This document shows positions 1,409 through 7,305 of a stretch of DNA of 64,000 nucleotides, piece by piece. The DNA comes from an uncultured Gammaproteobacteria bacterium (lineage in GTDB: Bacteria > Pseudomonadota > Gammaproteobacteria > Steroidobacterales > Steroidobacteraceae), in assembly GCA_963801685.1 (NCBI GenBank), contig CAWDFR010000010.1, positions 104,375 to 168,374 on the forward strand, written 5' to 3'. Every line of letters begins with the position of its first letter. Positions within the stretch are counted from its first letter, which is position 1. The notes below the pieces were generated by a model. That model saw nothing but the letters and a program-made list of their open reading frames with translations, was not told where the DNA came from and made no database searches. Position numbers and translations under genes: made by a program.

Positions 1409-3268
<1,860 letters not shown>

Positions 3269-3291: not shown

Positions 3292-4764
3292 ATGCCGCTT
3301 TCCGTCGTCATACTCGCCGCGGGACAGGGCAAGCGCATGAACTCGGACCTGCCCAAGGTCCTGCAGCCGCTCGCGGGACAGCCGCTCCTGCAGCATGTGA
3401 TCCGCACCGCCCGCGCGCTCAATCCGGCGAACGTGTACGTGGTGTACGGGCATGGCGGTCCGCAGGTGCGTGCCGCGTTCGACCACGAGGAGGTCGACTG
3501 GGTGCTGCAGGCGGAGCAGCTCGGCACCGGGCACGCCGTCATGCAAGCCATGTCCGCCATTCCCGACGACCATACCGTCCTCGTGCTTTATGGCGACGTA
3601 CCGTTGATACGGGCCGCCACGCTCCAGGCGCTGACCGTCGCGGCGAACACGGGGGCGCTCGCCATCCTGTCCGTCAGACTCGATCAGGCGGCGGGTTACG
3701 GCCGCATCGTGCGCGACCCGATGGGCCTGGTGCGGGCCATCGTCGAGCACAAGGACGCGAGCGCCGACGAGCTGATGATCAAGGAAGCCAACTCCGGACT
3801 GATGGCGGCCCCCGCCGGACGCCTGCGGGGCTGGCTCCTCGGGCTCGGCACGGAGAATTCCCAGCGCGAGTATTACCTCACCGACGTCGTCGGCCTCGCC
3901 GTGAAAGCCGGGGACCGCGTCGAGGCCGTGCTTGCGCCGAGCGCCACCGAGGTGCTCGGCGTCAACGACCGCATCCAGCTTGCGGAAGTCGAGACATGCT
4001 ACCGCATGGAACGGGCGCGCGAGCTGATGGTGGCCGGCGCCACGCTCGCGGATCCGGCGCGCATCGACGTGCGCGGCGGCGAGGTCTCCGTCGAGCGCGA
4101 CGTATTCATCGACGTGAACGCCGTGTTCATCGGCAAAGTCCATCTCGCGGCGCGCGTGAGGATCGGGCCCAACTGCCTCATCAAGGATGCCAGCATCGGC
4201 GCGGATACCGAGGTGTTCTCCAACTGCGTCATCGAAGACGCGCAGATCGGCGAACATTGCCGTGTCGGCCCGTTCGCGCGCTTGCGTCCGCGCACGCGTG
4301 CTCGCGCGCGGCGTGCACATCGGCAACTTCGTCGAAGTCAAGAACAGCGAGATCGGGCGCCGACAGCAAGGCGAATCATCTGAGCTATGTGGGCGACACG
4401 CGCGTGGGGAGTGGTGTCAACGTGGGCGCCGGCACGATCACATGCAATTACGACGGCGCCAACAAATGGCCCACCGAGATCGGCGACGGCGCCTTCATAG
4501 GCTCCGGCAGCATGCTCGTGGCTCCCGTGCGCATCGGCGGCCGGCGCGACCATCGGCGCCGGATCGACCATCGCTGCGAATGCTCCGCAGGGCAAGCTGA
4601 CGTTGACGCGTGCGCCGCAAGTCACGTCCTCGCGCTGGACCCGGCCGCGCAAGCTCGCCGCCGAGGAGCACGCGGCCGCGGTCGAGCGCGCCTTGAACGA
4701 GCCGCAAGGGGACACCGATCCCGCTGCGGGCACGGGCTCTCCCGACGCGGAGAAGGAGAGTTGA
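3292..4764 (+). CDS. glmU: Bifunctional GlcNAc-1-P uridyltransferase / GlcN-1-P acetyltransferase, frame broken three times
   Basis: The N-terminus reads [25 protein letters not shown]. The left-handed beta-helix part ([39 protein letters not shown]) continues through frames 1, 2, 0 and 1. The +1 changes are near 4292, 4356 and 4538. Confidence 0.9.
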
Positions 4765-4790
4765 AGGGATTTAGGCCGCCGCCATCGGCG

Positions 4791-5069
4791 TCATTTCTTC
4801 AAGTACTGATGCACGATCTCGATCAGCTCCTCGGCGGCGGCCGAGCGTGCCTCGGGGTCTGCGCGCGGGCTCATCATGTGCTCGCGCATGTGATCCTCGA
4901 TCACCTCCGCGATGAACCCGTCCAGAGCGCCGCGGCACGCGGTCGCCTGCTGCAGGACCGTCGTGCATTCATCGTCTGCGTCCACGGCGCGTTCGATCGC
5001 CTCGAGCTGCCCTCGCATGCGCTTCACGCGGTTCAACAATTTGGTCTTCTCTCGCGCTACATGCCCCAT
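4791..5069 (-). CDS. CsoR/RcnR/FrmR-family metal-sensing repressor, RcnR-like
   Basis: [61 protein letters not shown] aligns with E. coli RcnR as I recall it. Ligand positions H3, C35, H60 and H64 are all present. The start was chosen at the second Met of the tracked ORF. Confidence 0.8.
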
Positions 5070-5090
5070 CCGGCGGACTCCTTGCAAACT

Positions 5091-5107
5091 ATACCCTGGT
5101 AGGGTAT
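5091..5107. promoter_or_regulatory. Putative RcnR/CsoR-family operator, ATACCC-N5-GGGTAT inverted repeat
   Basis: ATACCCTGGTAGGGTAT lies 22 bp upstream of the repressor start codon, in the divergent intergenic region. It resembles the TACCC...GGGTA type operators of this family. Confidence 0.55.
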
Positions 5108-5232
5108 CTTAACACATCACCGGCGCGCTTCCGAGCCGGGCGATCGATTCGTAACACGATTGTCCGAGAATCGAGCGGCCGGTCCAAGCGCCGACCTCAT
5201 CGGGCGCGAGCGGCGCCCGAAGGGAGACCATC

Positions 5233-5370
5233 ATGATCAATTTCGGCTTTCGAGTCGCAGGTCGCGCGGCGCGCCTGCGAGAGGTTGCGGCCGAAGTCCT
5301 CGTGTTCGTGTGGGGCGCTGCGGTGCTGAGTTTCTGCGTGCTGATCATGGCGCTCTATTTCCTGGTGTAG
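5233..5370 (+). CDS. 45-aa hydrophobic micro-protein (one predicted TM helix), not in the ORF track
   Basis: The ATG is preceded by AGGGAGA at 5-6 nt. The product reads MINFGFRVAGRAARLREVAAEVLVFVWGAAVLSFCVLIMALYFLV. Its TAG stop lies 2 nt before the porin ATG. Confidence 0.4.
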   Translation: MINFGFRVAGRAARLREVAAEVLVFVWGAAVLSFCVLIMALYFLV

Positions 5371-5372
5371 TC

Positions 5373-6767
5373 ATGCGCTGCCGTCGCAGCTTTTTGCCGC
5401 TGCGGCCGGGCGCGCTCGCGTTCGCTTTCCTCGCCCTGGCGCTCACCTGCGTGGGCGCAGGCAGCCCTCCGGTGCATGCCGATCCAAATGCGGGCACCGC
5501 GGCCGAGGCGGCCGACACGAGTGCAACGCCCGATGAGCGTTATGCGGTCCACGGGCAGGCGACGTACGTCGAGCAGGACACGGACAACTTCCGTGCGCCC
5601 TACCGCGGGAGCCATAGTCTCACGCCCGACAGAGGCCGCGAGACCTCGGATCTCACTCTTTTTCTCGGCGCGCGTCTCTGGCGCGGCGCGGAGTTCTGGA
5701 TTTCGCCCGAGATCGACCAGGGACGCGGCCTCGACGACACGCTCGGTCTGGCGGCGTTCTCGAGCGGCGAGGCTTATAAGGTGGGCTCGAACGCGCCGTA
5801 CCTGCGGCTGCCGCGCTTGTACGCGCGCCAGACCGTCGACACGGGCGGGGAGCGCGAGAACGTCGAGGGCGTCGCCAATCAGCTGGCCGGCTCGCGCAGC
5901 ACCGACCGCTGGGTGTTCACCGTCGGCAAGTTTTCGGTGACCGACGTGTTCGACACGAATCAATACGCTCATGACCCGCGGAGCGACTTTTTGAACTGGG
6001 CCGCCGTCGACGCCGGCACCTACGACTACGCCGCCGATGCTTGGGGGTACACGGTGGGTGCGGCGGCGGAGCGCTATATCGGGTCGTGGACGTTCCGGGC
6101 GGGTGTGTTCGATCTGTCGGTCGTTCCGAACGACCCGCACCTCGACCCGGCGTTCCATCAGTTCCAGATGGACGGCGAGATCGAGAAGCGCTACCCCTTG
6201 TTCGGCAAGACGGGGCGCATTCTTTTCACGGCGTGGGACACCCGCGGACGCATGGGGCTGCTCGATCAGGCGATTGCACTCGGTCTGGCCACGGACACGC
6301 CGCCGAATCCCGCCCTGGTCCGCCAGTACCGCAGCCGCATCGGCGGAAGCTTCAACCTGGAGCAGCCGGTGAGCGATGACTTCGGCCTGTTCGCCCGCGT
6401 CGGGAAGGCGCAAGGCAATGTCGAGGTCTTCGAGTTCACGGACATCGACCGCTCGGTCGAGGTCGGCGGATCCCTCAAAGGGACGCACTGGTTTCGCCCC
6501 GGCGATACCTTCGGGGTCGTACTCCTGGACGACGGCATCTCCGCGGAGCGCGAGGAGTATCTGAATCTCGGCGGCCTCGGCATCCTGGTGGGCGACGGCA
6601 AGCTACCGCACCCCGGTGCGGAAGAGGTGGTCGAGACTTACTACAGCATCGGGTTGGTTTCGTGGGCGCAGCTGACCGCCGACTACCAGTACGTCAGGAA
6701 CCCCGCCTACAACCGCGATCGCGGACCCGTGTCCATATGGGCCCTGCGCCTGCATATGCAGTTTTGA
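5373..6767 (+). CDS. OprB-family carbohydrate-selective porin
   Basis: It has a signal peptide, MRCRRSFLPLRPGALAFAFLALALTCVGAGSPPVHA. OprB-like blocks are present (HGQATYVEQ..FRAPY.G.SL, GKFSVTDVFD, ADYQYV.NPAYN.DRGPV). The start was trimmed from the 535-aa tracked ORF. Confidence 0.8.
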   Translation: MRCRRSFLPLRPGALAFAFLALALTCVGAGSPPVHADPNAGTAAEAADTSATPDERYAVHGQATYVEQDTDNFRAPYRGSHSLTPDRGRETSDLTLFLGARLWRGAEFWISPEIDQGRGLDDTLGLAAFSSGEAYKVGSNAPYLRLPRLYARQTVDTGGERENVEGVANQLAGSRSTDRWVFTVGKFSVTDVFDTNQYAHDPRSDFLNWAAVDAGTYDYAADAWGYTVGAAAERYIGSWTFRAGVFDLSVVPNDPHLDPAFHQFQMDGEIEKRYPLFGKTGRILFTAWDTRGRMGLLDQAIALGLATDTPPNPALVRQYRSRIGGSFNLEQPVSDDFGLFARVGKAQGNVEVFEFTDIDRSVEVGGSLKGTHWFRPGDTFGVVLLDDGISAEREEYLNLGGLGILVGDGKLPHPGAEEVVETYYSIGLVSWAQLTADYQYVRNPAYNRDRGPVSIWALRLHMQF

Positions 6768-6840: not shown

Positions 6841-6869
6841 TTGACAATAGATGTATATGCATGTAAATT
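6841..6869 (+). promoter_or_regulatory. Putative sigma70 promoter of the marR-family gene with an embedded near-palindromic box
   Basis: The promoter is TTGACA (6841-6846), a 17-nt spacer, then TAAATT (6864-6869). The spacer contains ATGTATATGCATGTA (6851-6865), which is related to the perfect palindrome at 7331-7342. Confidence 0.5.
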
Positions 6870-6876
6870 AACGGCT

Positions 6877-7305
6877 ATGAAACTTCAATCGCTTCCCTGC
6901 TATTGCGCGACGCTGCGGCAGGCCGCCCGAGCGGTGACGGCACTGTATGAGGAAGTCCTCGCCGAGGGCGGCGTGCACGCAACCCAGTACACGGCACTGC
7001 AGATTCTCGAATCTGTACCCAAACTAACCACCACGGAACTCGCGGAGGCGATCGGGATCGACCAGACCACCGCCACGCGGACCCTTGCATTGATCCGGAA
7101 GAATGGACTCGCGGTCGACGCGCCGGGAAACGATCGCCGGCAGCGGCGGTGGACGTTGACCTCACAGGGCCGGGCGCAGCTGCGCAAGCTGAAGCCAGCA
7201 TGGGAGGCGGCGCAGGAAGCGTTTGAGAATCGATTGGGCCGGACCGAGGCGCAGGCCCTCAAGAGCGCCGCCTATCTTGCGGCGAGCAAGCTGGGGCCCG
7301 CGTGA
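6877..7305 (+). CDS. MarR-family transcriptional regulator
   Basis: A 142-aa winged-HTH pattern is present: ATQYTALQILESVPKLTTTELAEAIGIDQTTATRTLALIRKNGLAV..D.RQRRWTLT..G. Confidence 0.85.
   Translation: MKLQSLPCYCATLRQAARAVTALYEEVLAEGGVHATQYTALQILESVPKLTTTELAEAIGIDQTTATRTLALIRKNGLAVDAPGNDRRQRRWTLTSQGRAQLRKLKPAWEAAQEAFENRLGRTEAQALKSAAYLAASKLGPA

Follow-up and report, generated by a model that had tools for sequence, protein, structure and literature searches.

The closest described relatives of the system reported here are the sensor-exporter pairs DmeR-DmeF of Rhizobium, Agrobacterium and Sinorhizobium and RcnR-RcnA/RcnB of Escherichia coli. Their repressors are all-helical proteins of ~90 amino acids (aa) that share the ligand set His3-Cys35-His60-His64 (H3-C35-H60-H64, or H-C-H-H), are autoregulated, and bind between the -35 and -10 elements, at an AT-rich inverted repeat that flanks a G/C tract. 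E. coli RcnR also uses a small residue 2, whose N-terminal amine serves as a ligand after removal of the methionine, together with Glu34 and Glu63. The DmeR protein of S. meliloti (H3/C35/H60/H64) responds to Ni and Co, and its box, ATAGGGTACCCCCCTATGCTAT, lies between the -35 and -10 of dmeRF (PMC6044271). In this work, we analysed a locus at positions 4,791 to 6,767 of a 64,000-nucleotide stretch of DNA (hereafter the window; contig CAWDFR010000010.1, our C10), which derives from a metagenome-assembled genome (MAG) of the Steroidobacteraceae (G000; 5.38 Mb, 74% complete). Here, a repressor of this type stands divergent from a micro-open reading frame (micro-ORF) and an outer-membrane porin.

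The passage of divalent metals across the outer membrane is among the most poorly understood steps in bacterial metal homeostasis, and the same gap concerns how periplasmic metal delivered by cation diffusion facilitator (CDF), VIT1, GDT1 or P-type exporters gets out of the cell. To our knowledge, MnoP is the only dedicated outer-membrane divalent-metal channel that has been characterised; it is induced by Mn limitation and co-regulated with mntH. MnoP (blr0095, TCDB 1.B.4.2.2) is a Mn2+-selective channel of Bradyrhizobium japonicum and a 675-aa fusion protein with an N-terminal OMP_b-brl domain (PMC4827864).

On balance, and with some reserve, we favour an account in which a metal-released RcnR/DmeR-type repressor controls the micro-ORF and the porin. 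The regulatory link from the repressor to these two genes appears quite likely by itself. The locus would then represent an RcnR/DmeR regulon with a new target class, the porin, and a new small-protein component. In the literature searched, we found no description of an RcnR/DmeR-type sensor linked to a porin, nor of the micro-protein family. An earlier sequence-only reading of the window had pointed out the repressor, a palindrome, the micro-ORF and the porin, and all four are present where it had placed them.

The repressor and its operator

The repressor matches the PF02583 (DUF156) model with 82.3 bits (cut-off 22.8), which makes it a member of the CsoR/RcnR family. Direct counting and alignment to the structures of FrmR, CsoR and InrS identified G2, H3, E34, C35, H60, E63 and H64. 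The complete H3-C35-H60-H64 set, as claimed by the sequence-only reading, is thus present and corresponds to the fingerprint of RcnR/DmeR sensors. The small residue 2 and the two glutamates employed by RcnR are found as well, in the segments M-G-H, D33-E34-C35 and R62-E63-H64. Judging from these residues, the repressor belongs to the RcnR/DmeR branch of the CsoR family. Its ratio of nonsynonymous to synonymous substitution rates (dN/dS) against the nearest relative is 0.01. Altogether, 53 CsoR-family genes adjoin orthologous porins, and the homologues of the window repressor are nearly all H-C-H-H; outside the CsoR2 type, residue 2 is Gly, Ser or Ala in most porin-adjacent homologues, with Pro2 in one.

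Unlike in the DmeR and RcnR systems, no inner-membrane Ni/Co exporter (RcnA or DmeF) adjoins the repressor at the window locus, and the presumed target is an outer-membrane porin together with a micro-protein. The same genome encodes a second H-C-H-H paralog (MSHTIRDQ...) on contig C18 (G000:C18:265438-266948; L024 1483-2993, where L numbers denote surveyed loci), which is followed by a His-rich CDF. As judged by gene order and ligand residues, this pair is the canonical DmeR-DmeF layout of the genome. The earlier statement that the porin stands in place of an efflux pump is therefore correct for the window locus and incorrect for the genome, since contig C18 holds a paralog of the same ligand type with its CDF. 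In our tree, the C18 paralog clusters with alphaproteobacterial repressor-CDF pairs (support 100/95), and the window repressor falls into a separate clade. A genus-wide search repeated this split by sequence identity (at least 65% versus 43-55%). The C18 paralog possesses its own box, TATAGGGTAGGTGGGTATGG.

The divergent spacer (5070-5232) contains a perfect 7-3-7 palindrome, ATACCCT-GGT-AGGGTAT. It had been described as ATACCC-N5-GGGTAT, and as the only inverted repeat of the spacer; the position was right, the 6-5-6 form was not, and two further inverted repeats are located at 5136-5150/5168-5182 (15 nt, 87%) and 5200-5207/5213-5220 (8 nt, perfect). The 6-N5-6 core occurs as a single mismatch-free copy in the 5.38-Mb assembly. 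At the equivalent place, the operator is kept in more than 20 related loci. Nine related species share the arrangement TTG-N4-ACTATACCC(N3-4)GTAGGGTAT-c/a-N-t at a constant distance from the repressor start, in which the TTG precedes GGGTAT-c/a-N-t by 17 nt. On the plus strand of the window, this corresponds to a putative -35 (TTGCAA) and a putative -10 (TATCTT) whose 17-nt spacer is the operator itself. On the minus strand, the left end of the operator reads TATAGT, a putative -10 of the repressor gene. The Shine-Dalgarno sequence of the repressor overlaps the -35 of the opposite promoter, and the corresponding CTCCTTG is conserved in relatives. We propose that the operator lies inside a conserved promoter-like element of the micro-ORF/porin unit.

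In species with a co-directional repressor, or with the repressor on a different contig, the porin start is immediately preceded by a related box, ATATAGGGGGGTATA[CG]TATAT. This box and the window type are both similar to the DmeR box of S. meliloti. The window operator shares with RcnR/DmeR operators the AT-rich inverted repeat around a G/C tract and the overlap with the promoter, and differs from them in that its tract is interrupted (CCCTGG). In three co-directional loci (L039, L048 and L054), just ~10-15 nt separate the end of ATATAGGGGGGTATA[CG]TATAT from the ATG of the porin, whose mRNA may be leaderless or nearly so in these cases.

Between the operator and the micro-ORF, the leader (5117-5232) folds stably, with a minimum free energy of -56.2 kcal/mol (z = -2.87), and the two spacer repeats form hairpins. 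A scan of leader and locus against Rfam returned no family, including no NiCo or Mn riboswitch at the window locus; the single match, veev_FSE with 26 bits (threshold 55), is a chance hit. The leader is ~85% identical to that of L025 and differs from it by non-triplet indels.

The porin, the micro-ORF and their operons

The porin matches PF04966 (OprB) with 148 bits and carries a signal peptide with predicted cleavage between VHA and D. Its AlphaFold model (predicted local distance difference test score of 85) is a 16-strand barrel, whose top solved match is OprB of Pseudomonas putida (4GEY) with a TM score of 0.70 at 15% identity. Family match and fold thus agree with the OprB-family identity assigned earlier. 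The same reading had considered the porin family as normally linked to sugars, which did not survive the comparison of neighbourhoods. From the >554 porin loci of 185,579 species genomes, we surveyed the best 80; all survey counts given here derive from related, non-independent genomes. The porin orthologues in these 80 loci neighbour genes for CDF (~15), GDT1/UPF0016 (~10-13), MntH (12) and CopCD (7), and no sugar-uptake genes were found near porin orthologues in the ~130 loci examined overall. Thus, the window porin shares Pfam family and fold with OprB of P. putida/P. aeruginosa, and is set apart from it by low identity, by the lack of nearby sugar genes and by an invariant, very acidic loop (DxFDTNxYAHDPRxDFLNW...DYAADAW). 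We rejected the sugar-porin reading on account of the missing sugar genes. The acidic loop might plausibly serve as a cation filter.

Architecture and annotation point instead to MnoP. IMG gives the name 'high affinity Mn2+ porin' to 18 of the 33 members of the porin's 90%-identity cluster, and the OprB-type barrel and the orthologues beside mntH are further common features. Homologues from Bradyrhizobium (57-59% identity over the OprB domain) are ~700-aa fusions of OMP_b-brl and OprB, whereas the window porin consists of the OprB domain only. Judging from this comparison, the porin is a one-domain protein related to the OprB part of MnoP. The two also differ in regulation, as regulators of the window type relieve repression when metal is in excess. 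A gammaproteobacterial relative (MAG locus L043 3205-5323) has a Mn2+ riboswitch (80.3 bits) ahead of GDT1 and then a porin orthologue, ~30 nt apart, which looks like a Mn-induced operon of exporter plus porin. The GDT1/UPF0016 gene of the window genome also has a yybP-ykoY Mn2+ riboswitch upstream (58.4 bits; G000:C13:50840-51358, L110 1750-1918). Directly after the porin, ~10 loci (L049, L077, L085, L091, L099 and L104 among them) contain an ABC system made of a duplicated BPD_transp_1 permease and an ABC_tran+AAA_assoc_C ATPase.

Of 24 genomes sampled within the genus, 20 contain the porin; it was not found in 16 other families of the order. In ten of the 20 genus loci, the repressor adjoins the porin, divergently in seven and co-directionally in three, and two further loci possess the operator with no adjacent repressor. 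Starting from the repressor, we found a porin within 1.5 kb in 21 of the 30 best genus loci. Beyond the genus, the repressor clade is adjacent in ~24-30 of the best 80 of >554 porin loci, including Xanthobacteraceae, Caulobacteraceae and other Alphaproteobacteria. In these Alphaproteobacteria, DmeR-type boxes are placed between the repressor (or repressor-CDF) and the porin; the homologous repressor there still adjoins a CDF, as in the DmeR systems, with the porin beside it. The pairing is kept through several rearrangements in Gamma- and Alphaproteobacteria, as the sequence-only reading had asked of relatives. Gene order therefore argues that the repressor-porin link survives rearrangements in two bacterial classes, although the relatives are not independent of each other. 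In ~9 loci, another CsoR-family lineage (x/H-C-H-C/S; box TATCCTCCC-N-GGGAGGATA) takes the place of the repressor clade; with the fingerprint x/H-C-H-C or x-C-H-S, it stands beside porins, often together with a CDF, in L045, L070, L078, L080, L087, L089, L091 and L104.

The micro-ORF comprises 45 codons preceded by a good ribosome-binding site (RBS), and its TAG stop is separated from the porin ATG by the two nucleotides TC, exactly as noted before. Its product has one C-terminal transmembrane helix. Seven species possess homologues with the same helix, which lie 2-12 nt before the next start and in every case follow a GGAG-type RBS. In close pairs, dN/dS is 0.22-0.37 and length differences are in-frame, unlike those of the leader. 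Among 1.84 billion cluster representatives, a profile search retrieved 51 matches (E <= 0.001), all of 39-84 aa and aligned end to end, with the consensus MAAFSxF...AAGEIxLFLWTxLALAFSLLVMAGFL. In the hydrophobic helix, Trp is invariant, and Glu, Phe and Gly occupy fixed positions. Neither Pfam (E<=10, including the DUF2946 model PF11162) nor NCBIfam gave a match, and the family alignment holds no conserved Cys or His. As judged by this conservation, the micro-ORF is a genuine small-protein gene. The earlier description as an unannotated membrane peptide needs one correction: public collections that list NCBI, JGI/IMG and ENA as sources contain the exact sequence as a gene call, without a name.

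Two locus retrievals, one via the micro-ORF alone (from metagenomes) and one via the repressor alone, yielded the same invariant core of repressor, operator, leader and then micro-ORF, with variable cargo behind it. The cargo is the porin in most loci, porin plus an NRAMP-like gene in L142, porin plus VIT1 in L148 and L153, and porin, MgtC and VIT1 in L155. Elsewhere it is the NRAMP-like gene alone (L118, L129, L145 and L154), VIT1 alone (L136) or CDF (L143). The micro-ORF is hence not a porin-specific partner but the first cistron of the repressor's operons whatever gene comes next. The window genome contains one copy each of the micro-ORF and the operator. The NRAMP-like cargo protein shows the two defining features of NRMT-type Mg2+ transporters, a DxxG/TxxA motif and the replacement of His by Trp (PMC8806188). 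In L145 (2110-2775), the gene after the NRMT-type transporter encodes a protein that combines a PRC-barrel with the beginning of a MgtE N-domain, a further hint of a Mg2+ theme in the regulon.

Small membrane proteins that accompany Mg2+/Mn2+ transporters in their operons are known from enterobacteria. MgtR, MgtS and MgtU are single-helix peptides, and these three as well as MntS (30-70 aa) are co-regulated with metal transporters, just as MgtC and Mg2+ transporters occur in the operons of relatives of the window locus. They share no sequence similarity with the micro-ORF product, which differs further in being always the first cistron and, most likely, translationally coupled to the next gene. 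The copper-responsive leader peptides CruR/CutF (DUF2946) resemble the micro-ORF as small ORFs ahead of metal-related envelope genes, and are unlike it in that its conserved part is the C-terminal transmembrane helix. A comparable role, in which the micro-ORF would be a purely regulatory leader that gates translation of the next gene and whose peptide has no function, seems possible if rather unlikely. It would fit the invariable position of the micro-ORF behind the operator with any cargo, the 2-12 nt to the next start, the weak RBS of that next gene and the long structured leader ahead of the micro-ORF, as well as those species in which the micro-ORF is missing and the operator directly precedes the porin. 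The conserved helix with its invariant Trp and fixed Glu, Phe and Gly, together with the dN/dS values, looks instead like selection on a membrane protein, and neither the Cys/His motif nor the DUF2946 match expected from the CruR/CutF comparison is present.

Two loci of Xanthobacteraceae-like MAGs (L072 ~2700-3010 and L065 ~2760-3050) carry another conserved small ORF of ~100 aa (...LLCRWH...GALEC.W...) with no Pfam match, which is inserted between tandem DmeR boxes and the porin.

A proposed metal response and its alternatives

From the parts, their conservation and the position of the operator within the promoter-like element, we infer the following response. By analogy with characterised family members, a metal-free repressor tetramer would occupy the single operator ACTATACCCTGGTAGGGTAT and thereby block the spacer and -10 of the rightward operon as well as the putative -10 of its own gene. 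Upon accumulation of a divalent transition metal in the cytoplasm, the repressor would leave the DNA and both units would be transcribed. H3-E34-C35-H60-E63-H64 and the small residue 2 suggest Ni(II) or Co(II) as the likeliest effector, an assignment for which we see the chances as evenly balanced. Micro-protein and porin would be made from one mRNA, and because of the 2-nt gap and the weak porin RBS, translation of the porin is probably coupled to that of the micro-ORF by termination-reinitiation. As a passive 16-strand channel of MnoP type, more porin should result in a greater permeability of the outer membrane to divalent cations. The least certain step is what this achieves: the channel might let exported metal leave the periplasm, allow competing Mg2+ or Mn2+ to enter, or both, and for either direction of useful flux we put the chance no better than even. 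In relatives, the wider response would include CDF and VIT1 exporters and the NRMT/MgtC Mg2+ genes.

If this account is true, the RcnR/DmeR paradigm would grow from 'one sensor, one pump' to the control of envelope permeability. The locus suggests that MnoP-type porins are wired to cytoplasmic metal-excess sensors and thus not only to starvation regulators, that sensors of this clade jointly control exporters and Mg2+ importers in relatives, and that an uncharacterised small membrane protein always heads these operons. The trio is conserved in many soil bacteria, in which outer-membrane metal permeability may be tuned from a cytoplasmic sensor.

Several observations weigh against this account. 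The NCBIfam model of FrmR scores higher for the repressor (90.8 bits, cut-off 133) than that of RcnR (66.7 bits, cut-off 138); both values are below cut-off, and by this measure the repressor is an equivalog of neither FrmR nor E. coli RcnR. The second H-C-H-H paralog of the genome has a CDF of its own, and the two repressors may sense different things. About half of the porin orthologues of the genus are without this repressor and operator. A sigma-70 consensus scan called no promoter in the spacer, the proposed hexamers included; as these hexamers are defined by conservation and were missed by the stricter scan, we treat the micro-ORF/porin promoter as putative. Part of the cargo in relatives is atypical for Ni/Co, with GDT1 and VIT1 pointing to Mn/Fe and NRMT and MgtC to Mg. 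Lastly, a passive pore at steady state could not bring metal in the periplasm to a lower level than outside, so that it is not self-evident what the cell would gain from inducing the porin when metal is in excess.

The main rival explanation takes up the choice of metal. It holds that the porin-linked repressor clade senses Mn(II) or Fe(II) overload and governs a regulon for Mn/Fe efflux and Mg rebalancing, while the C18 paralog keeps the Ni/Co-CDF function. The separate, well-supported clades of the two paralogs are in line with this idea, as are the Fe/Mn exporter families (VIT1/MbfA-like and GDT1) and NRMT/MgtC among the cargo of relatives and the porin orthologue within the Mn-riboswitch operon of L043. 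The genomes also come from peat and forest soils, in which Fe(II) and Mn(II) are abundant. Nevertheless, we consider Mn/Fe sensing improbable. We know of no CsoR-family protein that senses Mn or Fe, and a site containing a Cys is poorly suited to Mn(II). The GDT1 gene of the window genome is distant from this locus and has its own Mn riboswitch, and the characterised H-C-H-H members, RcnR and DmeR, all respond to Ni/Co (PMC6044271 for DmeR).

A further reading, which strikes us as equally doubtful, sees the repressor clade, its operator and the micro-protein as a portable metal-stress module that has so far gone unrecognised. A cytoplasmic CsoR-family sensor would drive a 'cation-rebalancing' regulon that comprises an outer-membrane cation channel, Mg2+ acquisition of the NRMT/MgtC/MgtE type and VIT1/CDF exporters. 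The conserved tail-anchored micro-protein would be an obligatory functional partner, for example as a stabiliser or gate of the co-expressed transporters, and the clade would perhaps be the first Mn/Fe-responsive member of the family.

Returning to control by a Ni/Co-type repressor, the regulatory link presupposes that the neighbourhood is more than coincidental. It appears very improbable that the palindrome is autoregulatory only and the porin driven by an independent promoter. The operator is 22 nt from the repressor ATG and 125 nt from the micro-ORF start, and the spacer scan found no strict promoter consensus, as such a coincidence might predict. In co-directional loci and where the repressor is located on another contig (e.g., in G008), however, the box directly precedes the porin, and the pairing outlasts several rearrangements across the two bacterial classes. 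A FrmR-type formaldehyde/aldehyde sensor was rejected on Gly2 and His64 and is left with hardly any likelihood: although FrmR provides the top NCBIfam match, the top PDB matches and the IMG cluster name ('FrmR family'), that match stays under its cut-off, the closest structure (5lcy) is the metal-sensing E64H variant of Salmonella FrmR with the identical H3-C35-H60-H64 set, the Pro2 that in Salmonella/E. coli FrmR forms a methylene bridge with Cys35 upon formaldehyde cross-linking is replaced by Gly here and was seen in just one surveyed homologue, and frmA/frmB-like genes are present at none of the loci examined.

Locus layout and assembly quality

The features of the locus are compiled in Table 1.

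Table 1 Features of the repressor-porin locus in window coordinates
Feature	Positions	Strand	Remarks
CsoR/RcnR-family repressor	4791..5069	-	92 aa, MGHVAREK...YLKK; PF02583 and ligand residues
Repressor Shine-Dalgarno AAGGAG	5078..5083	-	8 nt before repressor ATG; sequence reading
Putative -35 TTGCAA of micro-ORF/porin promoter	5082..5087	+	proposed from conservation
Operator ACTATACCCTGGTAGGGTAT	5088..5107	both	core palindrome 5091-5107, 7-3-7
Putative -10 TATCTT	5105..5110	+	overlaps right operator arm
5' leader, ~115 nt	5117..5232	+	hairpins 5136-5182 and 5200-5220; Shine-Dalgarno of micro-ORF AAGGGAGA at 5220-5227
Micro-ORF, 45 aa	5233..5370	+	conserved family, C-terminal transmembrane helix; TAG stop 5368-5370
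MnoP-type OprB-fold porin, 464 aa	5373..6767	+	PF04966; signal peptide 5373-5480
Terminator-like hairpin and T-run	6744..6761	+	end of porin gene; likely operon end

The MAG contains indel errors, which affect glmU in the window (3292-4764) and, through a frameshift that splits the gene, the His-rich CDF of contig C18. GlmU is broken over at least three reading frames, with GlmU peptides in the ORFs 3292-4383, 4187-4600, 3996-5102 and 4603-4764. The pattern resembles that of homopolymer indels in a MAG from long reads, and errors of this kind probably contribute to the completeness estimate of 74%. Despite these indels, repressor, micro-ORF and porin are full length against many homologues, and we therefore rejected an artefact of a frameshifted assembly. 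Closely behind the terminator-like hairpin that ends the porin gene, the single promoter-like site called by the consensus scan (TTGACA-17-TAAATT, 6841-6869) precedes a MarR-family gene at 6877-7305.

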